Positions 15,533 to 62,551 of a DNA stretch of 64,000 nt are shown piece by piece. Both the position numbers and the translations under genes were made by a program. Position 1 is the first letter of the stretch; every line of letters begins with the position of its first letter. The notes beneath the pieces are model-generated. The model did not search any database. It saw only the letters and a program-made list of their open reading frames with translations, and was not told the DNA's origin. This DNA is from a plasmid: sequence record OW849299.1; one strand, written 5' to 3'.

Positions 15533-15654
15533 CAGCGATGTGCAGCCGCTCTTGACGGCGGCTTGTTTTCCCTGGTGTCGGGAACATTAAAACCTCTCCT
15601 TACTGCCCGCGTGATAGGGCCGTATTTCCGGCTAATTCCAGATAGTCCCGGCCC

Positions 15655-25964: not shown

Positions 25965-26041
25965 TTGATTTATATGGCTCATTCGTCGTATTATCAAGGC
26001 TCATTTTTCGGTAGCGCCCCGACTGGCGAAGGAGTAAAACC
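25965..26041 (+). promoter_or_regulatory. Leading-region promoter/leader element, copy a (diverged: TTGATT-18-TATTAT, then conserved leader)
   Basis: TTGATTTATATGGCTCATTCGTCGTATTAT… then CGGTAGCGCCCCGACTGGCGAAGGAG 7 nt before the ATG at 26042. Confidence 0.55.
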
Positions 26042-26548
26042 ATGCAATCATTCCCCCTGTTCGTTTCCCGTGTCGTTCCTGTGATCACCCTGAGCCATTG
26101 TCTGCGGCAGCGGCGCTGGTCCCTGCACAACACGCCATGCCAGATTGACCTGAGATCAGGTTGTCACCTGCGCTCACAGCCTTTCGGCACGCTATCCAGA
26201 CGGGAAATAAGCGACCGGCCACCGGCTATGCCCCGCGGTTACTGGTTCAGGCAATGCAGCCGGGATGTCATGTTTACGGGGCGCATCGATCAGGCAGATC
26301 CTATGAAACAGGTCTATTACAACGAAGGCTGGAGCGGTCCGAACAAGTATACGTTTGAAGTTTATCAGCTGGAGAACGGGAGTTACCGGGCGCTGGCCCG
26401 CAAATGGAATGGCAAAATCAACAAGGTGCAGCAGGAAACGCAGTACCTGTCTGACACGCGGGAGGGGCTGAAGCACCAGGACTATCCCCGCACGCGCCAG
26501 GTGAAAATTTTTCTGAATTCAGACTTCTGGGAGAAGGGTAATGATTAA
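26042..26548 (+). CDS. Hypothetical protein (168 aa)
   Basis: Preceded by the conserved leader + SD. Confidence 0.55.
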   Translation: MQSFPLFVSRVVPVITLSHCLRQRRWSLHNTPCQIDLRSGCHLRSQPFGTLSRREISDRPPAMPRGYWFRQCSRDVMFTGRIDQADPMKQVYYNEGWSGPNKYTFEVYQLENGSYRALARKWNGKINKVQQETQYLSDTREGLKHQDYPRTRQVKIFLNSDFWEKGND

Positions 26549-27020
26549 GATGGTTAGCGTCGTTCCGCAGCCGGAAACAGTGAAGACGCTCCGGGAAAAA
26601 ATGGGCATGACTGAAACCGCATTAGGGGCTGTCATGGGGTACGAACTGCGCGCCTGGCAGCGTAAGGAAGCTATCAGCGACGATCTCAGCCAGTACAACA
26701 AGACCAGTCTTCGCCCAGGCGAATATAACATGCTGATGCTGATCGCCGGCGTGCATCCTGATTACCGCCTGAACAGGGCATTCAGTCCTGATGATATGGT
26801 CAAAGATCCCGCCACGGCCGAAGACGTTCGCCGCCTGCGTCTGGCGCTGGGGCTGAAGCACGCTGAAATTGCAGCGCTGTTTGGCTATAAACCGGCGTCA
26901 TGGCAGACCAAAGAAAAGGCTGCTCAGCGCGGCGTAAAGCTCAAGACCGGGGAATTCAATTTCCTGTTACTTCTGGCCGGTGAGCATCCGTCACTGCAGC
27001 TGGTTGAGAAGGCGAAATAA
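26541..27020 (+). CDS. Protein with two tandem XRE-like HTH modules (159 aa)
   Basis: Internal duplication: …MGMTETALGAVMGYELRAWQRKEA…RPGEYNMLMLIAGVHP… / …LGLKHAEIAALFGYKPASWQTKEK…KTGEFNFLLLLAGEHP…. Confidence 0.55.
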   Translation: MIKMVSVVPQPETVKTLREKMGMTETALGAVMGYELRAWQRKEAISDDLSQYNKTSLRPGEYNMLMLIAGVHPDYRLNRAFSPDDMVKDPATAEDVRRLRLALGLKHAEIAALFGYKPASWQTKEKAAQRGVKLKTGEFNFLLLLAGEHPSLQLVEKAK

Positions 27021-27048
27021 GGCCCGCGGCGACCAGAGAGGACCCTTT

Positions 27049-27459
27049 ATGATCACCACACGCCGAATGTTAATGCTGTATGCCTGCCTTGTGCCCGTAG
27101 CCCTGACAGGGTGTGATCTGGCTGATTATTTCCCGAATGTGCCACAGCCCGTGCCCGTGATTTCGCCCGGCTATCAGGTTGATATCGATGGCCACCCGGT
27201 CCGAATATCAGGATTTGATGACTGTCCGCGGGAAAAAGATGAAGCCCGGCACGCAGCTGCACAAGATGAGAAAGGCTGCATTGTGCTGTCTGCAGAGCGT
27301 TCCGAGGTGAAGGTCAGACTGTATCAGCCAGCCGGCGCCGTCACCGAAACCTGGCGGATCATCCGGGAAAAAGACGCTCGCCAGAACGATATTATTCGCC
27401 TGCAGCGCCCGAACGGTGCGCTTGTGATGCAAAATTTACAGGGGAAAGAGTCTCCTTAA
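27049..27459 (+). CDS. Lipoprotein (lipobox LTGC), 136 aa
   Basis: MITTRRMLMLYACLVPVALTGC; SD GAGAGGA. Confidence 0.55.
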   Translation: MITTRRMLMLYACLVPVALTGCDLADYFPNVPQPVPVISPGYQVDIDGHPVRISGFDDCPREKDEARHAAAQDEKGCIVLSAERSEVKVRLYQPAGAVTETWRIIREKDARQNDIIRLQRPNGALVMQNLQGKESP

Positions 27460-27482
27460 ACCAGGGAAATAACAAAATTAAC

Positions 27483-27576
27483 TTGATTTATATGGCTCAT
27501 TAGACGTATAATAATTACATCGAAAGGCAATCCGGTCTTTCGACGGTAGCGCCCCGACCGGCGCAGGAGTCACCTT
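27483..27576 (+). promoter_or_regulatory. Leading-region promoter/leader element, copy b
   Basis: TTGATT-18-TATAAT with ATGGCTCATTAGACGTATAAT core; leader hairpins TCGAAAG…CTTTCGA and GCGCC-ccgacc-GGCGC then AGGAG. Confidence 0.6.
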
Positions 27577-27840
27577 ATGACTGCTCTCAATTCTCAGCAA
27601 CAGGCTGATGTTGCCCGCTATATCCGGGAACATGGCAATAAAACCGTTATTTCCCCTGAATGGTCACTTATTTATTTCTCGCTGTGTCAGTGTGAATTAC
27701 ATCAATCGCATGAAGCCATTATTTTTCATAATGGCCGACCTGCAGGGCTATTTATTCTGAATGAAACAGGCGAGCTCACCGAATTATATCTGCTGGGGTC
27801 GCTTTCTGACATTCTCACCGCCGCTGCGGTCAACAAATAG
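27577..27840 (+). CDS. Hypothetical protein (87 aa)
   Basis: ATG 7 nt after the leader SD. Confidence 0.5.
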   Translation: MTALNSQQQADVARYIREHGNKTVISPEWSLIYFSLCQCELHQSHEAIIFHNGRPAGLFILNETGELTELYLLGSLSDILTAAAVNK

Positions 27841-27861
27841 CTTTCAGGGAGTAAATACACT

Positions 27862-28224
27862 ATGACCATGCAATCAGAACTTGTTTTTACTGATCCTATG
27901 CTCAACGTCGTTATTGCTGAAGTTAAGCGTTTTAATTGCCCGCTTCTTTTTGTCAAAGATCATGGCGTGTATGTGATGGCGGCGAAAGGTGAGAAAAACA
28001 GTAATGGGATGCACAATGTCTGTTACGCCAATGGTTTTAATCCGGATACAACGGATTTTGACGAGCTCTGGGACCGGATGCGTGATGCCTGTGGCGGAGA
28101 TGATTTTTGCGAATCCCTGGAGCTCGATCCGAGGTCGATTGAACTTCTCAGCCGTACCAAACCCTGCCTGAAAATTATGCTTTCAGAGACGGAACTGGAA
28201 GTTATTGCAGGGGGACAGAAATAG
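27862..28224 (+). CDS. Hypothetical protein (120 aa)
   Basis: SD AGGGAG; acidic protein; no family recognised. Confidence 0.5.
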   Translation: MTMQSELVFTDPMLNVVIAEVKRFNCPLLFVKDHGVYVMAAKGEKNSNGMHNVCYANGFNPDTTDFDELWDRMRDACGGDDFCESLELDPRSIELLSRTKPCLKIMLSETELEVIAGGQK

Positions 28225-28268
28225 ACCATAAAAGCCCGTTAAATCGGGCTTTTTTATATTTCACTGTA

Positions 28269-28300
28269 TTTACATCTAGGACAAAATGTCCTATTATATA
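28269..28300 (+). promoter_or_regulatory. Promoter TTTACA-17-TATTAT with a perfect 7-3-7 palindrome TAGGACAAAATGTCCTA (28277-28293) in the spacer; KorC-operator-like
   Basis: The palindrome closely resembles the RK2 KorC operator TAGGGCATAATGCCCTA (recall); it lies upstream of the radC-like/korC-like pair, suggesting autoregulation. Confidence 0.55.
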
Positions 28301-28345
28301 TTTGTGGCCGGGCATGGTGCTCAGGTCCCCTAACGAGGGAAATAT

Positions 28346-28795
28346 ATGAAATTTTCAGCAGAAGAACTCAACATTATCCGCCAGGCGGACGCCATTATTG
28401 CCGGTAAAATTACCACAACGGATTTTATCACCGGCGCCGACGCCGCGCGTTCCTTACTGCGGTTTCGTCTTGCTGCAGAACCACGCGAATCATTCTGCGC
28501 GTTCTTTCTTAACTGCCACAACGGCGTGATTGCGTTTGAAGAACTGTTTAAGGGAACTATCAGCAGCGTCACCGTTCATCCGCGTATCGTCCTGCAACGC
28601 GCCCTGCATCATAATGCCGCCGCCGTGGTACTGGCGCATAACCATCCTTCCGCTAACACTACACCCAGCCAGGCTGACAAGCTGATCACCGAGCGTCTGG
28701 CGCAGGTGCTGGGGATGGTTGATGTCAAAGTCCTCGATCACCTGATTGTGGGCGGCAGCGATATTTACTCTTTTGCTGAACATGGTCTGATTTGA
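28346..28795 (+). CDS. radC: RadC-like JAB-domain protein (UPF0758 / DUF2466 family)
   Basis: …HNHPSANTTPSQADKLITERL… JAMM/RadC signature; 149 aa. Confidence 0.7.
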   Translation: MKFSAEELNIIRQADAIIAGKITTTDFITGADAARSLLRFRLAAEPRESFCAFFLNCHNGVIAFEELFKGTISSVTVHPRIVLQRALHHNAAAVVLAHNHPSANTTPSQADKLITERLAQVLGMVDVKVLDHLIVGGSDIYSFAEHGLI

Positions 28796-28839
28796 TAACC
28801 GCGGCCGCACAGTGGTGCGGCCGGCTCTGGAGGCTTGCT

Positions 28840-29106
28840 ATGGGCAATAAATATACCGTGCCGCTTAACGTGGGCGCGATCCGCGAAAGCTGTTTCCGTC
28901 CCGCTGATAAATGGACCCCGCCGACGGGGGATGAACTCCGCTATCTGCTGGAAAATGTGCTCAACCTGAGTCAGGAGGGACTGGCGCGACATGTCGGCGT
29001 GAACGGCAGAACGGTGCGCCGCTGGGTGAACGGAGAAAGTGACATCGCGTATTCCGTCTGGTGCGTCCTTTGCATCGATGCCGGCTTACCGCCGATCTGG
29101 AAATAG
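28840..29106 (+). CDS. korC: Small HTH transcriptional repressor, KorC-like (88 aa)
   Basis: …LSQEGLARHVGVNGRTVRRWVNG… HTH; SD GGAGG; a strong hairpin GCGGCCGCAC-agtg-GTGCGGCCG separates it from radC; the KorC-like operator lies upstream of the operon. Confidence 0.45.
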   Translation: MGNKYTVPLNVGAIRESCFRPADKWTPPTGDELRYLLENVLNLSQEGLARHVGVNGRTVRRWVNGESDIAYSVWCVLCIDAGLPPIWK

Positions 29107-29169
29107 CAGCGCAAAACACCGACGCGCAAACGTGCTTCCTGAACGTATCGGATATACGAAGGAAATATT

Positions 29170-29452
29170 ATGAATACTGATAACTATTTTTTCAGAGTCC
29201 CGGCCACACGCGGAATACAGGGCGGCATAGAACAATACATGCTGACGGTTCCTATGGTCGTGTTACGTCGTATTCTTGCAATGGACAATGATGGCGATGT
29301 TATGGATCGCAGCCAGCGAGAAGCGAACAAAACGCGGGCCAAAAAAATACGGAATTATGTTGCCGGCGCAACATCAAAACGAGCTCCCTATATTTTGCCG
29401 TCAATTACCGGAAATATTGATAGTCATGTTGAATTCCTTCCCAGCGAACTCT
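29170..29452 (+). pseudogene. DGQHR-domain (DndB-like, ParB/Srx-fold) protein, N-terminal fragment, truncated by IS1
   Basis: …RSQREANKTRAKKIRNYVAGATSKRAPYILPSITGNI… (the QR…ITG motifs of the DGQHR family) runs into the IS1 IR; the stop codon is provided by IS1. Confidence 0.6.
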
Positions 29453-29467
29453 GGTAATGACTCCAAC

Positions 29468-29971
29468 TTATTGATAGTGTTTTATGTTCAGATAATGCCC
29501 GATGACTTTGTCATGCAGCTCCACCGATTTTGAGAACGACAGCGACTTCCGTCCCAGCCGTGCCAGGTGCTGCCTCAGATTCAGGTTATGCCGCTCAATT
29601 CGCTGCGTATATCGCTTGCTGATTACGTGCAGCTTTCCCTTCAGGCGGGATTCATACAGCGGCCAGCCATCCGTCATCCATATCACCACGTCAAAGGGTG
29701 ACAGCAGGCTCATAAGACGCCCCAGCGTCGCCATAGTGCGTTCACCGAATACGTGCGCAACAACCGTCTTCCGGAGCCTGTCATACGCGTAAAACAGCCA
29801 GCGCTGGCGCGATTTAGCCCCGACGTATCCCCACTGTTCGTCCATTTCCGCGCAGACGATGACGTCACTGCCCGGCTGTATGCGCGAGGTTACCGACTGC
29901 GGCCTGAGTTTTTTAAATGGCGGAAAATCGTGTTGAGGCCAACGCCCATAATGCGGGCGGTTGCCCGGCAT
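29468..29971 (-). CDS. insB: IS1 InsB
   Basis: Identical to 8392-8895. Confidence 0.85.
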
Positions 29972-30165
29972 CCAACGCCATTCATGGCCATATCAATGAT
30001 TTTCTGGTGCGTACCGGGTTGAGAAGCGGTGTAAGTGAACTGCAGTTGCCATGTTTTACGGCAGTGAGAGCAGAGATAGCGCTGATGTCCGGCGGTGCTT
30101 TTGCCGTTACGCACCACCCCGTCAGTAGCTGAACAGGAGGGACAGCTGATAGAAACAGAAGCCAC
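29890..30165 (-). CDS. insA: IS1 InsA
   Basis: Identical to 8814-9089. Confidence 0.85.
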
Positions 30166-30220
30166 TGGAGCACCTCAAAAACACCATCATACACTAAATC
30201 AGTAAGTTGGCAGCATCACC

Positions 30221-31210
30221 GGGATTCTTAAAATTCCGATGGACGCTGATTTAAAATTATTCGATGGCCAGCACCGTGCGCTGGGTATTTTTGAATTTGT
30301 ACGCGATTATTCCAATACGGAAGATACGATCAGCTTGTTGCTTACCGTTGGCCTGCCACTTGAGTTACGCCAGCAGTTTTTCGCTGATATTAATAACAAC
30401 GCGAGCAAACCGGCAGCGGCGATCAGTATGGCATATAACAACAATGATCCGGTCAACCAGCTGGCAATGCATCTGGCCCGAACCGTCACCGGGCTGGCGG
30501 GCACAGTGGATTTTGAACACAACGTGGTCCCGGCGAAAAGCTCACGGCTGATCAGCTTTAAAGCACTGAACGATGCGACGAAAAAAATGCTCAACCTGCG
30601 GGCCAACAGCATTCCCTCGACGCAACAGCGTGATATGGCAGAAAAGCTCTGGACTGCCTGGGCACAGGCGATGCGCTGGAATGATATTGCCCAGGATGAT
30701 ATCGCTGCGGAGTACCGTCAGGAGGCGCTGGGACTGCATGGCATCATGATAAATGCGATCGGTATGGCAACGGCCAGGATGTTACGGCACAGAACACCTG
30801 AAAGCATCGAGAACCTTCTGGCCTGTGCGGAAAACGGAGACAACGGTTTTCATTATCGGGAGTCGTTTGTACCTGAGTGCTGGGAAGGGAAGTGTGTTGA
30901 TCCGGAGACTGGCACCATTAAAACTGACCGGCGGGCGCTTGAAGCAACGGCTGAAGCGCTGCAAAAGCTGATAGACCCGTTCGCAGATGCGCTGTGGTTG
31001 CGTGCTTATCTGCCAGTTGAAGAGGCGAGTGATACGGCATTACTGAAATATGCTGCTGACATCGAGAGTTATAAGCAGCGCACAGCCGTGCCGATGATCA
31101 ATATCGTGGAGAAGCTGAAGGCGCTGGGTGACGGCGAACCGCAGTTCAGAGCGTCGGTGCTGGCTTCCCGTGAGGGGCTAAGCCGCTATCTGGCCGGGGC
31201 TGAAGGCTGA
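30221..31210 (+). pseudogene. DGQHR-domain (DndB-like) protein, C-terminal fragment
   Basis: …LKLFDGQHRALGIFEF… DGQHR motif 10 codons after the IS1 junction; 323-aa ORF from an internal ATG. The frame is not restored by clean IS1 excision. Confidence 0.6.
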
Positions 31211-31230
31211 CGCGGTGGTTGCCGCCTGCA

Positions 31231-31261
31231 GGGCAATACGGGCATCGAACCCGTATTGCCC
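31231..31261 (+). terminator. Strong hairpin (perfect 12-bp stem GGGCAATACGGG / CCCGTATTGCCC) after the DGQHR gene
   Basis: Seen directly; no T-run, so it may act as an RNA stabiliser/processing site rather than a classical terminator. Confidence 0.4.
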
Positions 31262-31720
31262 TGAAACGCGCTGAGCCGCTCTCTGGGCGCGCATTTAAAA
31301 AACCTGTACCCATCATCGTTTTTATGTCTTTGACGAGTCCTGCCCCCTATTCTGGCCTTTTCTGATGTGATCCCGCCCTGGTGTCTGCAAGTTAACTTAA
31401 TTTTGACGCCCGCACAGCGTGTCTTCCCTGTTCATTTCTGCTCAGTTGCCGGCGTTTTCTGGCTGGCCTGTCGTACTAAAACACCTCTGGGCCCCTTCGG
31501 CTCCTGCCCGTCGGGCAGTCGTCAGCCACACTCCGCTAGCCAGGCAAAGCCTGGCAGCTCCGCCGAACCCCCTGCGGGGTTTCGGGCTATCGCTAGTGTC
31601 TGATGCCTGAACCCCTGCACCATGCCGGCAAAGCACCTTCATCGGGCTGATGGGGATCTGAAAAGCAAAATTTACAGGGAAAGGAGTTCAGGAAAAAACA
31701 AAGAAAATTAATCAGATAAC
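31262..31720 (+). other. ~460-bp GC-rich non-coding structured region with no convincing ORF; candidate ssi / ncRNA / single-strand element of the leading region
   Basis: Multiple local hairpins (GCCAGGCAAAGCCTGGC, CCCCCTGCGGGG, CCCGTCGGG…); the only ORFs are GTG-started, SD-less and overlapping. Confidence 0.3.
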
Positions 31721-31722
31721 GC

Positions 31723-31817
31723 TTGATTGTTATGGCTCATTAGACGTATAATGATCACATCGAAAGGCAATAAGGCTTTTCGCGGTAGCGCCCCGACTGG
31801 CGCAGGAGTAACAAATT
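31723..31817 (+). promoter_or_regulatory. Leading-region promoter/leader element, copy c
   Basis: TTGATTGTTATGGCTCATTAGACGTATAAT + leader hairpins + AGGAG. Confidence 0.6.
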
Positions 31818-31997
31818 ATGAGTAAAGCACTGACCCCCTCCCAGCTTAAAGCTGAACTGGAAACGCAGAAAGATGCGCTGCTGAAGGCGTGCCTGTATGC
31901 CCTCAACGAAATCCCTAACCGTCGTTTAAGTGGCCCGTATGCGTCCACGTATGCGCTGGCCGAGCAGGTCAGTAAACTGCTTCAGCGCTGCAAATAA
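31818..31997 (+). CDS. Small protein (59 aa) not in the ORF track
   Basis: MSKALTPSQLKAELETQKDALLKACLYALNEIPNRRLSGPYASTYALAEQVSKLLQRCK; ATG 7 nt after the conserved AGGAG. Confidence 0.5.
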   Translation: MSKALTPSQLKAELETQKDALLKACLYALNEIPNRRLSGPYASTYALAEQVSKLLQRCK

Positions 31998-32037
31998 TCA
32001 TTGATGGGCTGGCATTGCCAGCCCTGTTCACCCCTTA

Positions 32038-32069
32038 CGGTAGCGCCCCGCATGGCGCAGGAGTCTGAA
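32038..32069 (+). promoter_or_regulatory. Conserved leader element without a promoter (internal translation-initiation module)
   Basis: CGGTAGCGCCCCGCATGGCGCAGGAG 6 nt before ATG 32070; preceded by hairpin GGGCTGGCATTGCCAGCCC. Confidence 0.5.
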
Positions 32070-32930
32070 ATGTCATCTGAAAAAACTCTCCCGTCGGTCG
32101 ATCTGATGTCCTGCCAGCATGGCGGTGAAGTGATCCCGTCCATAGCTATTGAGCGCATTATCTCGTTGCGGAATGAAGGTATTCGCGTCTATCTCGACGG
32201 CATAGACAAGCTGCGAAAAGCGCGCGATCTGATGCAGCAGGCCGGAGGCTGTCAGTACCTGTATGACTACGACAAAGCCGTAGAGAGCGCGATCAAATGG
32301 AGCGACACCAGACCAGACCAGGCCGAAACGGCTATTTCCCGCGTTATCGACGGAAAAATCTGGGATCGGCTGATGTCGGAAACCGGCATGTATACGCTGA
32401 TGAGCAACAAACAACGTCAGGAATGGGATCGGCAGGTGGCAGGCGAGGAAATGCCGCCGATAACGCTGGAGAACGTTATGAGTACGTTCCGGCACCTGAA
32501 CGCAAGCAAGGCCGATACTTTCACGCAAGGGCTGATTGATATCTTTAAATCCCTGTCGTGGGATTATAAAACCAATAACCCCTGCATGTTTGGCAAGCGT
32601 ATCATCATCGCGCCGTTGCTCGATGTCTGGCGCAGTAGCTGGGTGCGCTTCAGCTCAGACGGGCACACCAAAATTGACGATCTGGCGCGGCCGTTCTACG
32701 TGCTGGACGGGCGTAACGTGCCTGATTACCGCGTTTCTGACGGTGCCAAACTGGATGCCTTTTTCAGTGAAAACCAGTTCAACGGTAAGGTGTTCGAGTG
32801 TGATTACTTCAGCGTGCGATATTACAAAAAGGGCAGCGCGCACATTACGTTTAAACGCCCGGAGCTGGTTGAGAAGATCAATAATCTGGTTGCCAGTCAC
32901 TATCCCGGAATGTTACCCCCTCGCGTGTAA
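32070..32930 (+). CDS. Hypothetical 286-aa protein (largest ORF of the small-gene array); candidate anti-restriction/establishment function
   Basis: Start placed by the leader SD (the ORF track extends to 32001 in the same frame); no motif I can name with confidence. Confidence 0.55.
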   Translation: MSSEKTLPSVDLMSCQHGGEVIPSIAIERIISLRNEGIRVYLDGIDKLRKARDLMQQAGGCQYLYDYDKAVESAIKWSDTRPDQAETAISRVIDGKIWDRLMSETGMYTLMSNKQRQEWDRQVAGEEMPPITLENVMSTFRHLNASKADTFTQGLIDIFKSLSWDYKTNNPCMFGKRIIIAPLLDVWRSSWVRFSSDGHTKIDDLARPFYVLDGRNVPDYRVSDGAKLDAFFSENQFNGKVFECDYFSVRYYKKGSAHITFKRPELVEKINNLVASHYPGMLPPRV

Positions 32931-33025
32931 TGCAGACGGCAGGCCGCATTTGCGGCCTGAAATATAAACAGGGAAAGGAAGTATTCCCCGGCCTGAAAAA
33001 ATCATGCCGGGCATGTATTTATTGC

Positions 33026-33119
33026 TTGATTAATATGGCTCATTAGACGTATAATAATCACATCGAAAGGCAATGAGGCTTTTCGCGGTAGCGCCCCGAC
33101 TGGCGCAGGAGTAATAAAT
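33026..33119 (+). promoter_or_regulatory. Leading-region promoter/leader element, copy d (canonical)
   Basis: TTGATTAATATGGCTCATTAGACGTATAATAATCA + TCGAAAGGCAATGAGGCTTTTCG + GGTAGCGCCCCGACTGGCGCAGGAG. Confidence 0.6.
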
Positions 33120-33458
33120 ATGGCTATTCAATCCCTTCAGTTCCGTAACGGCTCCGTTTCTCTTGGTGATGTTTTTGTTTCCAGCTGGGGTTATGAGCAG
33201 ACAAATACCTGTTTTTATCAGGTGATCGCCCTGCGCGGTAAGAAAACCGCCGTACTGCGCCGCATCGCTGCGCAGCAGGTGAAAGCAGACAGTGCAATGT
33301 CTGGCGAGTTAAAGCCGGTATTGAACGACTTTAAAGGCGAACCCGTGACCCGTCGCATCTGTGAAAACCATGAGCATCCGTCTGTCAGCATTGACGAGTA
33401 CGAACAGGCTTATAAGACCGATCCTAACGAAAGCCATTTTTACAGCACCTGGGGCTGA
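33120..33458 (+). CDS. Hypothetical protein (112 aa)
   Basis: ATG after the conserved leader. Confidence 0.5.
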   Translation: MAIQSLQFRNGSVSLGDVFVSSWGYEQTNTCFYQVIALRGKKTAVLRRIAAQQVKADSAMSGELKPVLNDFKGEPVTRRICENHEHPSVSIDEYEQAYKTDPNESHFYSTWG

Positions 33459-33555
33459 CCGCCTGCTACGCCCCGCAAGGGGCGTATAGTCGAAGACTTA
33501 TTCAACCAAAACGTGAATACTATGCGAAATAACAAGGCGCTCAGGACGCAGATAC

Positions 33556-33786
33556 ATGGCGGAAACAGTTTATCAGGCGCGGAGGCGTTTTTACCTTCTC
33601 CGTTTTCGGCGCAGTCGTAACCCGGACACACTGGAAAAAATGTACGAATCCATGCGGGATCGTGGACAGGTGCCGCCGGAGGACACCGAGGCTTTTGAGG
33701 CTGCCGCCGACCATCGCCGCGCAGAGCTGGCATCGGGACGCATCTGGGATAAGATCCCGCCGCATGTCTGGCAGTATGTAAAATAA
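33556..33786 (+). CDS. Hha/YmoA-family nucleoid-associated modulator (76 aa)
   Basis: C-terminus …EAFEAAADHRRAELASGRIWDKIPPHVWQYVK matches the Hha signature (…AADHRLAELTMNKLYDKIP..VW…). Confidence 0.6.
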   Translation: MAETVYQARRRFYLLRFRRSRNPDTLEKMYESMRDRGQVPPEDTEAFEAAADHRRAELASGRIWDKIPPHVWQYVK

Positions 33787-33818
33787 TCACAGCGCCCCTA
33801 CACGGGGCGTTTTTTTGC

Positions 33819-33898
33819 TTGCATATATGGCTCATTAGACGTATAATGTTTTTACTGATTCAAATCAGTACCTTCCTAAACAGCCTTACAGGTGCATT
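33819..33898 (+). promoter_or_regulatory. Leading-region promoter element, copy e (TTGCAT-18-TATAAT) with a different leader (hairpin TACTGATTCAAATCAGTA)
   Basis: Core ATGGCTCATTAGACGTATAAT conserved; the leader is not the common one. Confidence 0.55.
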
Positions 33899-34012
33899 AT
33901 GACCTCTTCTGAAATCCTCCATAACCTCCCTCAGATTATCACGGCCGTGGCCGCCCTCATTACAGCCATTACCGGGCTGATTAAAGTCATGAAGGATAAA
34001 GGTAAGGACTGA
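33899..34012 (+). CDS. Small hydrophobic peptide (37 aa) not in the ORF track
   Basis: MTSSEILHNLPQIITAVAALITAITGLIKVMKDKGKD; one TM helix; downstream of promoter copy e. Confidence 0.4.
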   Translation: MTSSEILHNLPQIITAVAALITAITGLIKVMKDKGKD

Positions 34013-34049
34013 ACCGCCGCAGGGGGCGACAGCCCCCTGCATCCCTAAC

Positions 34050-34083
34050 CGGCAGCGCCCCGACTGGCGCAGGAGTAAAAAAA
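34050..34083 (+). promoter_or_regulatory. Conserved leader element without a promoter
   Basis: CGGCAGCGCCCCGACTGGCGCAGGAG 8 nt before GTG 34084; preceded by hairpin CAGGGGGCGACAGCCCCCTG. Confidence 0.5.
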
Positions 34084-34320
34084 GTGACAACGCTGCATAT
34101 TCGAGAAATTCCCACTGATGGAGCGCCGCCTATCTGTGCAGGCCGCTCAATCTCAGATGATGACCTTTGCGCCTCATGCCAGCATCTCGACTATCGCCCT
34201 GGGCACCTCAGCGCCTGCCTGCTGTCAGGTTGCGGGCGTGACGACTGGCCTTCAGAACTGGATGCAAACGGCTACAGCGTTGCCTGTAGCAGCTATGAGC
34301 GTGAAAAATCGCTTGATTAA
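34084..34320 (+). CDS. Cys-rich small protein (78 aa, GTG start)
   Basis: Frame chosen from the conserved SD position; 7 Cys (CAGRS…CASCQH…CLLSGC…) suggests a Zn-binding module. Confidence 0.45.
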   Translation: MTTLHIREIPTDGAPPICAGRSISDDDLCASCQHLDYRPGHLSACLLSGCGRDDWPSELDANGYSVACSSYEREKSLD

Positions 34321-34404
34321 TATGGCTCATTAGACGTATAATTATCACATCGAAAGGCATCCGGTCTTTCGCGGCAGCGCCCCGACTGGCGCAGGAGTTT
34401 TACA
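34313..34404 (+). promoter_or_regulatory. Leading-region promoter/leader element, copy f
   Basis: TTGATTAATATGGCTCATTAGACGTATAATTATCA + leader. Confidence 0.6.
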
Positions 34405-34815
34405 ATGCACGGTAACGTAAATGAAATTTGCGCAAGGCTTCTCGATAGTTTTGATCCACAGCAGCGGATCAGCCTGCTGATCTGGACTGCTGAAGATGTC
34501 CATGACTGCACCAGTGATATGAACCTCACTGACGATGAGGCCGAAGCCGTTCTGGCAGAAATCGCGGAATGCAGTTCACACAGCCGTTATGGCGTCGGAA
34601 AAGATACCGTCTGGAGCCTGGCAAAGCAGGTGCGCGAAGATGCCGCCCGCGATCGAAAAATAGAGGTCAATGCCGAGGCGCTGCAAAAAGTCGTGGCGCT
34701 GGCGGCGCAGTTTATCCGGCTGGAAGAAATCCAGTCTGGTGAAGGAGCTGCACGCCGACTTTATCCGCAGGAGTCTGAGGCGCTGGAGTGCATCACGAAG
34801 GTGATTAACGGCTAA
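34405..34815 (+). CDS. Hypothetical acidic protein (136 aa)
   Basis: ATG after the conserved leader. Confidence 0.5.
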   Translation: MHGNVNEICARLLDSFDPQQRISLLIWTAEDVHDCTSDMNLTDDEAEAVLAEIAECSSHSRYGVGKDTVWSLAKQVREDAARDRKIEVNAEALQKVVALAAQFIRLEEIQSGEGAARRLYPQESEALECITKVING

Positions 34816-34842
34816 TTCACGCAGTAACGCAGCGAACTTTCA

Positions 34843-34876
34843 CGGTAGCGCCCCGACTGGCGCAGGAGGAAAAAAC
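34843..34876 (+). promoter_or_regulatory. Conserved leader element without a promoter
   Basis: CGGTAGCGCCCCGACTGGCGCAGGAGG 8 nt before ATG 34877. Confidence 0.5.
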
Positions 34877-35182
34877 ATGTCCCAGAATGAAGCCTATTAC
34901 GACACGCTGGCCCTGATTGAAAAGGGGCAATGGTGTTTCGGCAGTATGGACGAAGAAAACGAAGAGCGGGCAATCAAGGCCGCTAAGGCGCTGGCGCTGT
35001 TTGCGCGCCTGAATGAGCAGGACTGCGACGGACACCCGGTTTCCGAAATCATCGTTGATTTTATCGCTAACCTGATGCACCTGGGGGAAGCGATAAATTT
35101 TCGTGTGCTCGATGAAGAAAGCGCGGTGATCCCGTTGGTCAGGATCGCCGCCGTACACTTTAACGCTGAAACAAAGTCATAG
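34877..35182 (+). CDS. Hypothetical acidic protein (101 aa)
   Basis: ATG after the leader. Confidence 0.5.
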   Translation: MSQNEAYYDTLALIEKGQWCFGSMDEENEERAIKAAKALALFARLNEQDCDGHPVSEIIVDFIANLMHLGEAINFRVLDEESAVIPLVRIAAVHFNAETKS

Positions 35183-35287
35183 TAATCATGTGAATCAGAA
35201 GGGGGCAGGCGTGATCCTGCCCCCAAAAATGGACAGGGGAAAGAGTTCTCCCGCCTGAAAATATTCAGGCAGGCGGGAATTTTTTGC

Positions 35288-35382
35288 TTGATTAATATGG
35301 CTCATTAGACGTATAATAATCACATCGAAAGGCAATCCGGTCTTTCGACGGTAGCGCCCCGACTGGCGCAGGAGTACAGAAA
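35288..35382 (+). promoter_or_regulatory. Leading-region promoter/leader element, copy g (canonical), driving klcA
   Basis: Identical to copy d over ~90 nt; preceded by terminator CCCGCCTGAA…TTCAGGCAGGCGGGAATTTTTT. Confidence 0.6.
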
Positions 35383-35823
35383 ATGTCTACTGAACTGAAT
35401 CAACCCGCCATCACTGCACGCATTATCCCCAATAACCGCCGCATGGCCTTTCTGCCACGTCTGTTCGGCGCCTGGTATCTCACAGGTGAGGCCGGTGTCT
35501 ACAACCTCGCACGCTCTCTCTGCGTCGATTATCAAGGCGGTTCCTGGGAGTTCGTCGAACTGTCTTGCGGTAGCGGCTTCATGTACCCACTGAGCGCAGA
35601 GCGCTTCACGGTATCGGTTAGCGGTAACTGGTTCGAAGGGGAACTGTCCGCAGAAGCTACCGGTATCGTGCTGACCCTGTTCACCCTGAACCACATGATC
35701 TGGCACGCACATGATGAAGGCTATCAGCACATCTGCGACATGCTGATCACCCAGCAGGAAAAGCTCAAATTATATGCCGACCAGCACGCCGAAGCCGGTT
35801 TGATTTACCGCGCGATTGACTGA
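35383..35823 (+). CDS. klcA: Anti-restriction protein KlcA/ArdB family
   Basis: 146 aa, MSTELNQPAITARIIPNNRRMAFLPRLFG… resembles RK2 KlcA / ArdB (recall). Confidence 0.7.
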   Translation: MSTELNQPAITARIIPNNRRMAFLPRLFGAWYLTGEAGVYNLARSLCVDYQGGSWEFVELSCGSGFMYPLSAERFTVSVSGNWFEGELSAEATGIVLTLFTLNHMIWHAHDEGYQHICDMLITQQEKLKLYADQHAEAGLIYRAID

Positions 35824-35866
35824 AACGGCGGCCCCCGTGAGGGGGCCAATACTGACAGGGGGAAAA

Positions 35867-36151
35867 ATGTTAACACTAACTGATATTCGCGCCAGCAATA
35901 CGGTGCTGGTTACGGAATTTGGCGGCGTGCGTGCTGTGCATTTCTGTCTGCATGAAAAATTAAGCGGTAGCGACAACGATCTGTGGTTTCCGCTTGCCAA
36001 TGGAGCCGACCTGTTCGAGGCGCTGGAAAGCATTATGTGCATCAATTTTGCCGCTGCTAACGTTGTCTCGCTGGAGTTCCTGCGGCAGAACGGGAAGTGC
36101 AAAGACTACCGGATCACCTACAACAAGGCCAAATTCAAGCCATTAGGTTAG
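35867..36151 (+). CDS. Hypothetical protein (94 aa)
   Basis: ATG 35867 with SD AGGGGGA (the longer ORF start at 35816 overlaps klcA). Confidence 0.45.
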   Translation: MLTLTDIRASNTVLVTEFGGVRAVHFCLHEKLSGSDNDLWFPLANGADLFEALESIMCINFAAANVVSLEFLRQNGKCKDYRITYNKAKFKPLG

Positions 36152-36215
36152 ATGTCTGGCATCATTTGATGTTCATATTTGAACAAAATTAAATAAAAAA
36201 AATACGTCTGATGAG

Positions 36216-36305
36216 TTGATAAAATGGCTCATTAGACGTATAATTATTACATCGAAAGGCAGTTGAGTCTTTCGCGGTAGCGCCCCGACTGGCGAAGGAG
36301 TTGAA
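36216..36305 (+). promoter_or_regulatory. Leading-region promoter/leader element, copy h (TTGATA-17-TATAAT), uniquely flanked by a 13-bp inverted copy of the core (TACGTCTGATGAG at 36204-36216)
   Basis: TACGTCTGATGAG…CTCATTAGACGTA form a 13-bp imperfect inverted repeat bracketing the -35; leader + AGGAG. Confidence 0.55.
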
Positions 36306-36527
36306 ATGAAAGAAGCAGACCAAAAAAAAGTGAATGCCGTAATGGCAATTGCTGATTATCTCGGTGTGAAAAATCAAATCGAGGTGATCGAATACTCAGC
36401 CGAATCAGTGCAGGTTGAGTGGCGAAATCCTAAAACAAAACAGCTTATTCATCGTGATTACACTTTTGCAAATTCCTTTGTAAAAGACTTTGAAAAAGCC
36501 CTGAAATCGAACGTGAAGTTTTACTGA
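36306..36527 (+). CDS. Hypothetical protein (73 aa)
   Basis: ATG after the leader. Confidence 0.5.
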   Translation: MKEADQKKVNAVMAIADYLGVKNQIEVIEYSAESVQVEWRNPKTKQLIHRDYTFANSFVKDFEKALKSNVKFY

Positions 36528-36532
36528 AAAAG

Positions 36533-36550
36533 AGGGGGAGAAATCCCCCT
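36533..36550 (+). terminator. Weak hairpin AGGGGGA-gaaa-TCCCCCT between orf73 and ssb
   Basis: No clean T-run; possible attenuator. Confidence 0.3.
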
Positions 36551-36598
36551 TAATCCTCCCATTTTTTACTGATAAACATCAAATATATGAGGTGTATT

Positions 36599-37033
36599 AT
36601 GTGGAAACGTGGCGAAAACAAAGTGATTCTGATGGGGCGTGCTGGCAAAGATGCAGAAGTGCGTTACACCCCAAACAGAACGGCCATTGCGAGCCTGACG
36701 CTGGCTACAGAAATCAGCTACAGCGACAACGAAGGGAAGGAGCAAAAAGAAACGGAATGGCATGATATTGTCATTTTTGGAAAGAAAGCCGAAGCAGCTG
36801 GGAAGTACTTCAAAAAGGGTATGATGCTGTATTTTGTCGGGCGCATTCGTAATAACAAATGGCAAGGGACAGACGGCAAAATGCGCAGCAATAAGGAAAT
36901 TGTGATCGATAATAACGGCGAAATGCAGATGCTGCCGGGAGCTGGGCCACGTAACACCAGTGCAGAAGGCCAGGGAGGCATTGAAAATCATGATGAACCG
37001 CCGTTCCCGGATATGAATGATTACCCGCAGTGA
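36599..37033 (+). CDS. ssb: Plasmid single-stranded DNA-binding protein SSB
   Basis: MWKRGENKVILMGRAG…WHDIVIFGKKAEAAGKYFKKGMMLYFVGRIRNNKWQ… OB fold, acidic C-terminal tail DEPPF. Confidence 0.85.
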   Translation: MWKRGENKVILMGRAGKDAEVRYTPNRTAIASLTLATEISYSDNEGKEQKETEWHDIVIFGKKAEAAGKYFKKGMMLYFVGRIRNNKWQGTDGKMRSNKEIVIDNNGEMQMLPGAGPRNTSAEGQGGIENHDEPPFPDMNDYPQ

Positions 37034-37088
37034 GTATTTGAGTTAGAACGGCCCGCAGGACGCGGGCCGCCAATCCAGAGGGGGGAGT

Positions 37089-37400
37089 ATGAATATCAGT
37101 GAACAATATCGGGTGGCGGTCGTCAGTACCGGCCATGTAAAAAAAGAAGACGCGGAACTACTGGACAAGGTCTGTAACGATGACTTGTCCGGTCAAGGTT
37201 TGTTCTGGATCGAGAAAAATCGCTATGGGTGGATATTGCGTATTTCTGCTACTGAACAATGGCGAGTGGAATTAACCAGGGCGGGGATCAGTGCAAGTGC
37301 TTTGGATAATATAGCCGCGTTAAATGGTGCCGGGTTCGACTGGATTTGGTTTGACCGGGATGCGGAACAGGTGCCAGAACTGACCGTTTGGGAGTGGTAA
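37089..37400 (+). CDS. Hypothetical protein (103 aa)
   Basis: SD GGGGGAG; follows hairpin CGGCCCGC-agga-GCGGGCCG. Confidence 0.5.
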   Translation: MNISEQYRVAVVSTGHVKKEDAELLDKVCNDDLSGQGLFWIEKNRYGWILRISATEQWRVELTRAGISASALDNIAALNGAGFDWIWFDRDAEQVPELTVWEW

Positions 37401-37440
37401 ACCGGTTAAAAATTTGCCTCGAAAAGGGGCATTTTTTTCT

Positions 37441-37532
37441 TGCCTGCAATGGCTCATTAGACGTATAATAATCGTGAAGTTTAAAAGTGGATATTGATTA
37501 AAACGCTCTGTAAATAACGTGGAGAGAATATT
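37441..37532 (+). promoter_or_regulatory. Leading-region promoter element, copy i (TTGCCT-18-TATAAT) with a non-conserved AT-rich leader
   Basis: Core ATGGCTCATTAGACGTATAAT conserved; drives an AT-rich gene. Confidence 0.5.
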
Positions 37533-38069
37533 ATGGCGGCCTTATACCCTTATGAGGTTTATACCCTTATTGTGTCAGAATTAATCGTAAGCCATTTTAA
37601 TGATGTCGCTATGGTATATCCGGGAAGCGAAGAAATTAAAAAGAACTACGACAGTGAATTAAGTGCTGTACAGGTAGTTAATGGCATCAGAGAAAAACTG
37701 ATTGAAGATGGTGTTATACAGTGCGAACAGTGCCCACTGCTATCCGAGTGGGATGAGAACAAGGTTATCAACCAGCTAATTAAAGATTACCGCCTGATTC
37801 TCAATCGTGACTATGAACTAAACCGTGTTCGTCAGCAGCTGGCCCCGGAGCTGATCGCACAGATAGAAAACTGGAAAGAGCAGAAGTATTCCGATTCTGC
37901 GAAGGAATACGAGGTGCTCTATGAAACCATCAACATCAACGGAAAGGAGGTTACAGGCAAACTAAACGTAGTTGCAGTAAGTCGCTTTGATGCTGTTTTC
38001 ATCGTAGGGCAGCGTCACGCTAACGATAACTTTTTGGTTCTGGATGTGAAGGAGGTGATGAATCATTGA
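37533..38069 (+). CDS. Hypothetical protein (178 aa, ~35% GC; compositionally foreign)
   Basis: SD GGAGAG; markedly lower GC than its neighbours. Confidence 0.5.
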   Translation: MAALYPYEVYTLIVSELIVSHFNDVAMVYPGSEEIKKNYDSELSAVQVVNGIREKLIEDGVIQCEQCPLLSEWDENKVINQLIKDYRLILNRDYELNRVRQQLAPELIAQIENWKEQKYSDSAKEYEVLYETININGKEVTGKLNVVAVSRFDAVFIVGQRHANDNFLVLDVKEVMNH

Positions 38070-38138
38070 AATCCAGAAAAGGTGCCGGATTGCGCCAACA
38101 ATCCGGCTGGGTAGGCAATTTAAATTGTGAGGTTCAAA

Positions 38139-38279
38139 ATGCCATTGTGGATTATACACTATGCTGAAGATGTCGCAAACGGAGTGCAAACAAAGTCGCA
38201 TCCGATGAACGCAGCGCAATGGGATCACTTCCGTTTCTGGTTGGCAGTGTTCCGGCGGATTAAAGAAGCCGCAATGTAA
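38139..38279 (+). CDS. Small protein (46 aa) not in the ORF track
   Basis: MPLWIIHYAEDVANGVQTKSHPMNAAQWDHFRFWLAVFRRIKEAAM; RBS context TGTGAGGTTCAAAATG identical to that of parM; followed by a terminator. Confidence 0.35.
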   Translation: MPLWIIHYAEDVANGVQTKSHPMNAAQWDHFRFWLAVFRRIKEAAM

Positions 38280-38294
38280 TCTGTAACTGTCTCA

Positions 38295-38318
38295 GGGGCG
38301 CTGTATGCGCCCCTTTTT
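38295..38318 (+). terminator. Rho-independent terminator (GGGGCGC-tgtat-GCGCCCC-TTTTT)
   Basis: Classical hairpin + T5 ending the leading-region transcription unit. Confidence 0.65.
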
Positions 38319-38570
38319 AATATCCTTGCCCGGACTCCTTTCCCTGTAAATTTATCGGGATCAAGGGCGGATCGTGGCCCTGAACGTGCGCACCATTGAG
38401 CGCTGCATCGCAGCGGAACCGGAAAATTTTTTTCCGGCCAATGAGTGCCCTTGTCACCGGAACGGTGACAAGTATGCACGCACAATTACACGAACAGGCA
38501 GCACCCATGCCCGGCCTGACAGGCCGGGAGCTATATCATAATGTGGGATGCTATATGTGAAAGGTGAAGG

Positions 38571-38936
38571 TTAATACTGCGGACCTGAAGCGTCAGGATT
38601 CTGAGCGGTAGAGCTATTTTGTGTGCGCTGCTCTTCGTCAACTCCAGTGATTTTTTTTCGGCTGTTGCTGGTTCTTTTTTTTCCAACTCGTCCGGCAGTA
38701 ATGTCCTTGATATCACGTAATGTAACGTCTGAAAAACCCGCATCGTTGAGGAATTTCAGTATCTCTTTATCTTCATATCCTTTCGAATCTTTCAGCTTCT
38801 TAATGTCAGACTTAAGCTCGTCGAGTACGTGCTTTTTCTCAAGCCTTTCCGACGTCACATCAGGCAAGTCGTCGAGAATGCTTTTGAATTTTCCGATGTC
38901 CTCACTGCTATAAAATGCTTTCTTTTTTGCAGGCAT
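38571..38936 (-). CDS. Lysine-rich hypothetical protein (121 aa) divergent from nikA
   Basis: ATG 38934-38936 with SD GGGAGGG; highly charged, K-rich C-terminus (possible DNA-binding/relaxosome accessory role). Confidence 0.45.
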   Translation of the reverse strand: MPAKKKAFYSSEDIGKFKSILDDLPDVTSERLEKKHVLDELKSDIKKLKDSKGYEDKEILKFLNDAGFSDVTLRDIKDITAGRVGKKRTSNSRKKITGVDEEQRTQNSSTAQNPDASGPQY

Positions 38937-38969
38937 ATGCCCTCCCAATAATGTCAAAATCGCCATGCC

Positions 38970-39205
38970 GAACCGGAGAAAATCGACCCAGGCTATTCGG
39001 GTGATTTTACATGATGCCCGGCACGATTCAATTGCTCTGCCTGCCAGGCCCTTCGCTGCTGGCTTTCAAACCTCGCCGATGGTAGAATTCAATGAGGTAT
39101 TTAAGTACGGGACAAGATGTGTTTTTGGAGTACCGCCGACACGCGGCGGCCGTCCAAAAACGTCTTGGTCAGGGCAAGCCCCGACACCCCCTAACGAGGT
39201 TAGCT
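38970..39205. promoter_or_regulatory. Candidate oriT region (nested inverted repeats TTTTTGGA-g-tac-CCGCCG-acac-GCGGCGG-ccg-TCCAAAAA at 39123-39160)
   Basis: Intergenic region between divergent genes immediately upstream of nikA/nikB, the usual oriT location in I-complex/IncL-M plasmids. The nic site is not identified. Confidence 0.45.
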
Positions 39206-39210
39206 ATCTG

Positions 39211-62543: not shown

Positions 62544-62551
62544 TTACCGAA

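Follow-up and report, generated by a model that had tools for sequence, protein, structure and literature searches.

A repeated predicted promoter and candidate operator ahead of the leading-region genes of a pOXA-48-type IncL plasmid

The kor regulon of the IncP plasmids is a form of zygotic induction that depends on the absence of the repressor, and in the aca-acr operons of phages very strong anti-defence promoters give an initial burst and are then clamped by small helix-turn-helix (HTH) proteins of the Xre type. Here we consider the leading region of a conjugative plasmid, which occupies 25.97-39.11 kb of a 64,000-nucleotide stretch of plasmid DNA (sequence record OW849299.1; the window, in what follows) and whose genes stand behind repeated copies of one predicted promoter. 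Between positions 26,000 and 44,000 the window matches pOXA-48-type IncL plasmids of Klebsiella, Enterobacter and Citrobacter (typed IncL/M, MOBP, MPF_I) at 100% identity, and pOXA-48 is the main vehicle for OXA-48 carbapenem resistance. The window is collinear with NZ_OW969712.1, whose RefSeq annotation supplied our gene map, except for differences in insertion sequences (IS) and an intron.

Two 2025 studies of pOXA-48 found both orf20 and korC to be essential, and both stated the targets of Orf20 and KorC as unknown. The essential orf20 forms an operon with orf19 (PMC12365149); it could be deleted only when a copy of orf20 was provided in trans, and recipients of the deleted plasmid elongate and stop dividing. 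For KorC, the single predicted site lies in the promoter of orf24-korC, flanked by its -35 and -10 (Baffert et al.). In pCTX-M3, the nick site (nic) is ACATCTTG|T (PMC8125031), and a 106-bp fragment upstream of nikA suffices for mobilisation; the leading-region gene orf35 represses nikA, nikB and traH, which rise 40-fold, 23-fold and 80-fold, respectively, when orf35 is deleted (PMC8125031). On a much larger scale, it has been documented over thousands of elements that the anti-defence, SSB, methyltransferase and toxin-antitoxin families of leading regions are encoded exclusively in the orientation for which the transferred strand is the template (Samuel et al., 2024). The gene orientation described below is a correct instance of this already published rule and is not new.

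Self-comparison of the window brought out a repeated intergenic module. The leading genes on the plus strand fall into ten transcription units, all read toward the origin of transfer (oriT), and nine of them lie behind copies of a single predicted sigma-70 promoter (Table 1). The 21-bp box at the core of this promoter, ATGGCTCATTAGACGTATAAT, is present in nine copies, all on the plus strand, eight of which are identical while one has three changes. It sits in a frame made of an A/T-rich stretch, a -35 hexamer (TTGATT, TTGCAT, TTGCCT or TTGATA), a spacer of 17-18 nt and TATAAT, and a consensus scan placed eight of the nine boxes among the best promoter matches, at 9-11 of 12 consensus positions. 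In most units the promoter is followed by a conserved leader, some 65 nt long, that contains two hairpins and has AGGAG just before the start codon. A 25-mer leader box, GGTAGCGCCCCGACTGGCGCAGGAG, in which a GCGCC/GGCGC hairpin precedes a Shine-Dalgarno (SD) sequence, recurs ten times at 5-9 nt before start codons, two of these copies standing between cistrons and without a promoter. All nine promoter boxes and ten leader boxes are confined to 25,974-37,469, with none elsewhere in the 64 kb and none expected by chance, and several box promoters are directly preceded by a terminator hairpin with a run of T.

Over 16 promoter copies, those of IncL together with those of the IncFII/MPF_I plasmid L007, conservation reaches 0.98 in the box core (the 15 spacer bases beside the -10) and 0.96 in the -10 itself, against 0.46 in the upstream flank and 0.68 in the downstream 22 nt; the comparison uses the core, the -10 and the flanks, and leaves out the mean of the -35 hexamer. 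The spacer is usually the least constrained part of a promoter. Because the spacer here is far more constrained than its flanks, unlike that of an ordinary promoter, we suggest that the box is a protein-binding site and a candidate operator. At the orf32-ssb promoter alone (36190-36245), an inverted half-box, ATACGTCTGATGAG, lies upstream and forms a hairpin with CTCATTAGACGTAT that holds the -35 in its loop; this hairpin is kept in L007, and the half-box might be a second operator half-site.

Which protein might bind the box is suggested by its distribution. The box is identical in IncL, IncM and L007. In pLAU_ENC1, with its more diverged leading region, five promoters carry a different box, GGTATGTCTTTTGTCGTATAAT, and the leader hairpin reads TCGCC..GGCGA in place of GCGCC..GGCGC, a compensatory change of G-C to T-A, while IncX3 plasmids have two copies of the module in which a palindrome, ACCATCATTTGATGG, abuts TATAAT. 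Homologues of Orf20 are encoded near the box promoters, with 97-100% identity in IncL/M plasmids and L007 and 45% in pLAU_ENC1, and in IncX3 and IncI2 the homologue is split into two genes with a single HTH domain each. Orf20 itself is an internal duplication of an HTH module of about 75 amino acids (aa), its halves being 34% identical (E = 3e-14). An AlphaFold (AF2) model (pLDDT 89.8, pTM 0.87) has two four-helix modules, and Foldseek, with weak scores, likens each half to Xre-type HTH repressors (Aca10, Aca1, Aca2, HigA2, HipB and C-proteins). As modelled, a fused pseudo-dimer would fit the non-palindromic box, and separate subunits would fit the IncX3 palindrome. Moreover, the orf20 operon has the sole variant and weaker copy of the promoter, with TATTAT as its -10 in pOXA-48 and TATCAT in pLAU_ENC1, which by analogy would be the usual design of an autoregulated repressor. 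We posit that Orf20 may repress the box promoters, a link on which we find ourselves almost evenly divided, leaning slightly to doubt; if nine strong promoters were released at the same time, the phenotype of orf20 loss would be explained. KorC was considered as regulator of the box and rejected: it has its own palindromic operator, TAGGACAAAATGTCCTA, which occurs only at 28277-28293, within the -35/-10 of the radC-korC promoter, and was not found in the klcA promoter, and pLAU_ENC1 is without KorC yet keeps the box design.

The meaning of gene orientation depends on where transfer starts and in which direction it proceeds. The original prediction placed oriT at about 39.0-39.2 kb, just upstream of nikA and nikB, and assumed that the relaxase genes enter the recipient last. 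Alignment to the oriT of IncM and IncI-gamma/K plasmids, to which the region is 90% and 74% identical, respectively, upholds the position, and the suggested search by similarity to pCTX-M3 yielded an exact match to its nic motif on the minus strand, with nikA on the 5' side of the motif, in agreement with the assumed polarity. Along the minus strand a GC-rich block (GGGGGTGTCGGGGC..GCCCTGACCA) is followed by the inverted repeat (39121-39161) and then by ACATCTTG|TCCCG (39120-39108); in the continuous read of the region, GGGGGTGTCGGGGCTTGCCCTGACCA comes first, then the repeat, then ACATCTTGTCCCG. The 18-nt repeat arms lie 8 nt from nic, within the 244-bp gap before nikA. Across the IncL, IncM and IncI-gamma/K origins the GC-rich block and the nick region are invariant, and the repeat arms differ yet stay complementary. 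The nick motif is of the I-complex type, (C)ATC(C/T)TG|T on the transferred strand, IncI/K having ACATCCTG|TCCCG, and the layout is that of MOBP/I-complex origins, with the inverted repeat 5' of nic and nikA and nikB adjacent and reading away from oriT. We place the start of nikA at ATG 39211, which is supported by the IncM annotation, by the 105-aa size of the pCTX-M3 NikA and by a ribosome-binding site; the RefSeq/PGAP 'mobA' start at 39001 was rejected, as it would carry the reading frame across oriT (39001-39210).

Relaxases of the MOBP type, such as those of RP4 and R64, become covalently linked to the 5' end at nic, and transfer proceeds 5' to 3'. Given this behaviour, and because the nic motif is on the minus strand, the transferred strand is predicted to be the minus strand, running from 39112 toward lower coordinates with nikAB-tra entering last, and would therefore be the template for genes on the plus strand. 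That every gene of the stretch lies on the plus strand, as originally stated, holds for 22 of the 24 annotated coding sequences (CDS) at 26,042-39,000, so that the transferred strand is the template for nearly all of the leading genes; the IS1 transposase and orf35 are on the minus strand. IS1 is a late insertion and not a native leading gene, and the DndB-like DGQHR gene that it splits has DndB profile positions 1-81 before the element and 96-333 after it. The native exception is orf35, for which there is a promoter-like site at 39031-39004 on the minus strand; a homologue, annotated as YggA-like, hypothetical or 'MobC', has the same place and orientation in every relative examined (IncI/K, L007, pLAU_ENC1, pYR6 and a Serratia plasmid). 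At least 22 of 24 CDS on one strand has P = 1.8e-5 against an even split, and 10 of the 11 native transcription units read toward oriT (P = 0.006). The region thus has the position and strand of a leading-region island in the sense of Samuel et al. (2024), on the side of oriT opposite the relaxase and with the transferred strand as template.

Table 1. Features of the leading region and adjoining oriT in the window; promoter, operator and nic assignments are predictions
Feature	Position	Strand	Description
Unit 1	25965-27459	+	variant promoter TTGATT-18-TATTAT, box ATGGCTCATTcGtCGTATtAT at 25974; orf19, orf20 (26541-27020), orf21
Unit 2	27483-28224	+	box promoter (27492); 87-aa protein, DUF3085
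Unit 3	28269-31210	+	different promoter TTTACA-17-TATTAT; radC-like (orf24), korC, IS1-split DndB-like DGQHR gene
IS1	29,452-30,220	- (transposase)	769 bp; 99.9% identity to the plasmid's other IS1; splits DndB-like gene
Unit 4	31723-32930	+	box promoter (31732); 59-aa protein, second leader box (32039), DUF4942
Unit 5	33026-33786	+	box promoter (33035); 112-aa protein, Hha-like; terminator 33791-33811
Unit 6	33818-34320	+	box promoter (33827); 37-aa ORF (33899-34012), leader box (34051), 78-aa acidic protein
Unit 7	34313-35182	+	box promoter (34322); DUF1380, leader box (34844), 101-aa acidic protein
Unit 8	35288-36151	+	box promoter (35297); klcA (ArdB-family antirestriction), 94-aa protein
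Unit 9	36216-37400	+	box promoter (36224; TTGATA-17-TATAAT); orf32 (73 aa), ssb, orf33 (DUF5983); terminator 37415-37431
Unit 10	37440-38314	+	box promoter (37449); 178-aa acidic protein, 46-aa ORF (38139-38279); terminator 38294-38314
Hairpin cluster	38320-38540		five or six perfect, short hairpins separating unit 10 from orf35; most structured on transferred strand
orf35 (YggA-like/'MobC')	38,571-38,966	-	native exception; first gene to enter
oriT core	39100-39195	-	nick region, 18-bp inverted repeat and block GGGGGTGTCGGGGC..GCCCTGACCA (39167-39192)
Predicted nic	39112-39113	-	ACATCTTG|T, cut between 39113 and 39112; 5' end 39112 leads toward lower coordinates
nikA	39211-39528	+	105 aa; Pfam NikA-like 3e-18; first gene of tra operon, enters last
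nikB relaxase	39515-41494	+	Pfam Relaxase 6e-29; tra operon, enters last

We suggest that the leading genes are expressed in a burst from duplex promoters after synthesis of the complementary strand, and are then shut off by a repressor; this is the best explanation that we can offer and a probable one, although we are far from certain of it, and it treats promoter activity, timing and the repressor as predictions from sequence. NikB would nick the minus strand between 39113 and 39112, and that strand would enter the recipient 5'-first from 39112, bringing in orf35 first, followed by the block that runs from ssb and klcA to orf19. The complementary strand would be synthesised there, in the same direction as leading-gene transcription; a Pri primase-like protein is encoded at 44,233-47,670. 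The box promoters would work only once duplex, because they are not embedded in hairpins. In a recipient free of repressor, every unit would fire as its promoter becomes duplex, as in zygotic induction. Orf20, made from the weakest, variant promoter copy at the distal end of the block, would accumulate, bind the conserved box and shut the units off, with KorC separately controlling radC-korC.

The same orientation could serve a different mode of expression, in which the incoming strand folds into promoter-mimicking hairpins and the host RNA polymerase transcribes them before there is a complementary strand, as with the Frpo and ssi elements of F and IncI1 plasmids. The 22 co-oriented CDS satisfy what such a mode asks of orientation, and IncI-type relatives with a homologous oriT use such hairpins, but co-orientation is necessary and not sufficient for expression from single-stranded DNA. 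In a blastn search (word size 7) of the window with Frpo1/2 of F and the ssi elements of IncI/K, the only match was to a flank: a 55-bp stretch at 31558-31611, in the 607-bp gap 31211-31817, is 84% identical to a segment that flanks both ssi/Frpo-like units of IncI-gamma/K. A small hairpin within it, CCGAACCCC..GGGGTTTCGG, shows compensatory changes in its stem, and the stretch may be the relic of an IncI-type ssi unit minus its promoter hairpin. There is no inverted copy of the full box in the window or in related loci. When the transferred strand was folded in sliding windows of 120 and 260 nt, and each promoter region separately, the nine promoters had pairing probabilities of 0.42-0.62, at the background of the whole segment (0.43-0.57) and with different partners in each copy, and the klcA unit folded into two small leader hairpins only (z = -1.7). 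No hairpin that rebuilds a -35/-10 pair was found upstream of any unit, where the best 260-nt window reached -54 kcal/mol, as against -70 to -87 kcal/mol per 260 nt for the known elements (F Frpo1/2 and IncI/K ssi) under the same scan. The structured spots on the transferred strand are terminators, leader hairpins and the hairpin cluster at 38.32-38.54 kb, and the first leader hairpin looks as though it is selected in the mRNA sense, because the one G-U wobble that it keeps in every sequence variant would be an A-C mismatch on the transferred strand. The cluster, the sole strongly structured element, was rejected as a single-strand promoter for the leading genes: it lies on the oriT side of all plus-strand genes and cannot serve them, because transcription templated by the transferred strand runs toward oriT. 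With a near-consensus duplex promoter already ahead of each unit, the evidence favours reading the box promoters as ordinary duplex promoters, and we regard promoter hairpins in the incoming strand as quite improbable. The original prediction had allowed for expression either immediately from the incoming single strand or right after complementary-strand synthesis; the former finds neither an Frpo/ssi homologue nor a promoter hairpin to act from, and ordinary sigma-70 promoters favour the latter. We think it very unlikely, too, that co-orientation is unlinked to early expression and that an ordinary accessory or maintenance block merely continues a plasmid-wide strand bias, arising from long operons or from co-direction with replication or transfer. 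There is such a bias, with 63 CDS on the plus strand and 19 on the minus strand among 82, a plus-strand block that runs uninterrupted from some 3 kb upstream of the region, across nikAB-tra, as far as repC, and a cumulative GC skew that climbs over the entire window; measured against it, 22 of 24 has a P of only 0.06 (Fisher's test of the leading region against the remaining plasmid, 0.03), and on this plasmid alone the orientation pattern is not specific to the leading region. Against this reading, leading-side genes pooled over seven plasmids (this plasmid, L007, pLAU_ENC1, pYR6 from Yersinia ruckeri, the Serratia entomophila plasmid, IncI-gamma/K and F) number 109 toward oriT and 12 away from it, and in pYR6, the Serratia plasmid and IncI-gamma/K the leading genes still face oriT although trb/tra beyond the relaxase are on the opposite strand; the orientation of the leading genes is therefore tied to oriT. 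The strand-bias reading would also have to accommodate both the private set of nine promoters, which has no member elsewhere in the window, and the breadth of the published orientation rule.

It is also conceivable that the promoters are real but are constitutive or are controlled by something other than Orf20, such as H-NS/Hha, KorC acting indirectly or a host factor, with Orf20 essential for another reason, for example as an antitoxin like MqsA or HigA, and with the identical boxes a product of recent duplication or gene conversion. Orf20 has sub-threshold matches to the Xre-like antitoxin HTH and MqsA families, its fold matches include HigA, HipB and MqsA, its IncI2 homologues are annotated 'antitoxin Xre-like', and the plasmid encodes both Hha-like and H-NS-like proteins. 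Nevertheless, orf19 does not behave as the toxin partner of Orf20 would, since its deletion is harmless and transposon insertions in it are depleted (PMC12365149); the box core is better conserved than its flanks across three plasmid lineages; the box sequence changes along with the Orf20 homologue in pLAU_ENC1 and IncX3; and in both lineages in which it was seen the one variant, weaker copy is that of the orf20 operon. We consider control by something other than Orf20 unlikely, if worth keeping in view. Several points weigh against the proposal of a duplex-promoter burst ended by Orf20. Promoter function is predicted by consensus matching, and the identity of the copies could come in part from gene conversion and not from selection. 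The link between Orf20 and the box is circumstantial, built on co-occurrence in three lineages and on the essentiality phenotype, while the Foldseek matches of Orf20 are weak (best E = 0.12) and include a weak resemblance to antitoxins of the MqsA/HigA type. The proposal does not account for two structured non-coding stretches, at 31.42-31.68 kb and 38.32-38.54 kb, and hairpin classes without sequence homology exist, with new classes of single-strand promoters still emerging, which limits the reach of the negative search above and also speaks for the hairpin alternative. Finally, the leading genes are dispensable for transfer into laboratory Escherichia coli, a point that also favours a mere strand bias.

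Some structured elements deserve mention in their own right. The hairpin cluster at 38.32-38.54 kb (z = -5 to -7.5; best 260-nt window -62 kcal/mol) is found in IncL and IncM and is absent from L007. Its hairpins include CCGGAAAA-TTT-TTTTCCGG and CTTGTCACCG-GAA-CGGTGACAAG, both with 3-nt loops, and it might serve to insulate oriT from read-through, or as a signal for priming. In the Yersinia and Serratia relatives, where ardA and psiB are both present, a GC-rich element of about 200 bp recurs in 4-5 copies (L012, 1926-2150, 3120-3345 and other copies; L013, 5968-6192, 10887-11104 and 12952-13170), its ends forming a 16-bp perfect stem (GGCTTGCGCCGTAGCC/GGCTACGGCGTAAGCC) upstream of leading genes; these are candidate hairpin-type promoters for single-stranded DNA, in contrast with the pOXA-48 design. 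In pLAU_ENC1 a segment between the radC-like gene and the next gene (15340-15600) reaches -80 kcal/mol per 260 nt on the transferred strand, so box promoters and a hairpin element may occur together on one plasmid.

The gene content expected for the region (klcA, ssb, a radC-like gene, an hha-like gene and many unknowns) was borne out, in that Pfam recovers every named gene: the KlcA/ArdB antirestriction family (PF03230, 2e-24) and SSB (2e-28), which supply the recognised anti-defence and establishment genes of a leading-region island, and the RadC-like JAB and Hha-like proteins. Further Pfam families are DUF3085, DUF4942, DUF1380, DUF5983, a KorC-like HTH and an Xre-like HTH; DUF4942 is related to the C-terminal part of phage DNA methyltransferases (PHROGs). 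The reported absence of ardA and psiB likewise stands, as tblastn with ArdA, PsiB and PsiA gave no match better than E = 0.97 in the full 64 kb. Profile searches returned no anti-CRISPR match among the leading-region proteins, and the small unknowns correspond to DUFs or to nothing in Pfam, NCBIfam and PHROGs, nine leading-region proteins being without a family. Six small proteins are strongly acidic (pI 4.5-4.7), which, from pI alone, would fit DNA mimics. The original prediction had the small unknowns possibly supplying the functions of ArdA and PsiB; the searches point to no function for them. Two open reading frames (ORFs) are unannotated. One, of 37 aa (MTSSEILHNLPQIITAVAALITAITGLIKVMKDKGKD; 33899-34012, plus strand), is hydrophobic, has AGGTG as its ribosome-binding site and comes first after the box promoter at 33827; it resembles a small membrane peptide, and its over-expression could be toxic. 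The other, of 46 aa (38139-38279, plus strand), follows the 178-aa gene and precedes the terminator at 38294-38314, and is probably a real gene, because it is conserved in frame in L007 and has 42% identity over 38 aa in pLAU_ENC1. Rfam gave nothing relevant in the window, its one sub-threshold match being to the rimP leader over the korC promoter.

Pieces of the region also occur outside IncL/M. Two IncF plasmids of K. pneumoniae, NZ_MN310374.1 (L009) and NZ_CP101880.1 (L010), contain IS-bounded pieces of it that adjoin their own F-type leading region or resistance genes, and one such piece holds parMR, nuc, orf19-21 and two box promoters. We rejected both as independent box-bearing plasmids, since they are recent recombinants with pieces of the same region; these IS-bounded pieces on IncF plasmids do mean, therefore, that the regulon is moving between plasmid backbones. 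Elsewhere in the window, a 1,441-bp insertion relative to the reference pOXA-48 (61975-63415; terminal inverted repeats TGAAGTGAACCCC/GGGGTTCACTTCA), probably an insertion sequence, lies within a hairpin upstream of repC. At 13810/13811 the window is without the 1.9-kb group II intron (ltrA) that the reference plasmid has between pemK and umuD, and within the pri gene (LPD7/primase-like) there are tandem repeats of about 45 bp with mutual identity of 89-94% (45469-45917).

The leading region thus reads as a compact regulon in which one control sequence is repeated, and the box gives Orf20 a concrete set of candidate targets. If the proposed pathway holds, one repressor-operator pair would govern the whole establishment programme, and its failure would be toxic to the host, as nine strong promoters are released at once and cells filament; this would explain the essentiality of orf20 and make the pair a possible target for plasmid curing. 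We also put forward, with rather more reserve than conviction, that IncL/M, related MPF_I and IncX3 plasmids share a second, hairpin-free timing of leading-region expression clamped by an HTH protein of the Orf20 family. It would combine a strong duplex promoter, present in several copies, with an operator that is specific to the lineage and lies directly against the -10, and with a shared hairpin-SD leader. Close relatives of the IncI plasmids would then reach early expression without single-strand promoters, which matters for searches that look for leading regions through Frpo-like hairpins.

The published maps of pCTX-M3 (IncM) and pOXA-48 share the backbone described here; the oriT fragment, the nic motif and the orf35 repressor were described for pCTX-M3, and the essential status of orf20 and korC and the orf32-ssb-orf33 operon, which was also predicted by Baffert et al., for pOXA-48. 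The accounts of the two plasmids that we examined mention neither the promoter box, present here in nine copies, nor the leader, present in ten, and the box sequences gave no match in a full-text search; an earlier description may exist, for instance in the papers that first reported the sequences of pCTX-M3 or pEL60. What appears to be new here is the repeated promoter-operator-leader module and its putative link to orf20. The F and IncI1 plasmids (ColIb-P9, R64, pESBL) resemble pOXA-48 in that leading genes face oriT and a small gene on the opposite strand adjoins it, in sharing klcA/ardB, ssb, DUF1380, DUF4942 and a distal parM-parR, and, for IncI, in a homologous oriT (74%) with the same nick motif and architecture. 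They differ in that the pOXA-48 region is without Frpo/ssi hairpins, ardA, psiB/psiA and a ParB-methyltransferase, and in that repeated promoters of the duplex type, with the conserved box in the spacer, stand at the head of its units.

The IncN plasmids (pKM101/R46) have a regulon of conserved upstream repeats (CUP) under ArdK/ArdR, as summarised in PMC6289460 from Delver and Belogurov (1997). According to that summary, promoters of antirestriction genes in the leading region lie in these repeats, the repressor also acts on its own promoter, and expression is thought to peak on entry. Like the kor regulon of IncP, it is a known case of zygotic induction that depends on the absence of the repressor. 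The multiple promoter-bearing upstream repeats of pOXA-48 (nine promoter and ten leader copies) match these in design only: blastn finds no match between the leading regions of R46 and the window, BLASTP finds no similarity between Orf20 and R46 ArdK (E = 22) or ArdR (E = 0.83), and IncN is MOBF/MPF_T where this plasmid is MOBP/MPF_I. The resemblance is one of analogy and not of membership. With the aca-acr operons the parallel lies in the regulator: when each half of Orf20 is compared by structure, Aca10, Aca1 and Aca2 rank among its closest counterparts, though the similarity is weak (E = 0.1-1). Orf20 differs in joining two HTH modules as a fused tandem, and its presumed operator is non-palindromic and spread over nine promoters. 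The KorC regulon of IncP (RK2/RP4), with its klcA, kleA and kleC promoters, differs in that the KorC operator here is single and klcA stands behind a box promoter without one. As in IncP, however, klcA is present, loss of the repressor is detrimental, and a KorC homologue, 39% identical to that of RP4 (Baffert et al.), has a palindromic operator in the promoter of its own operon, flanked by the -35 and the -10.

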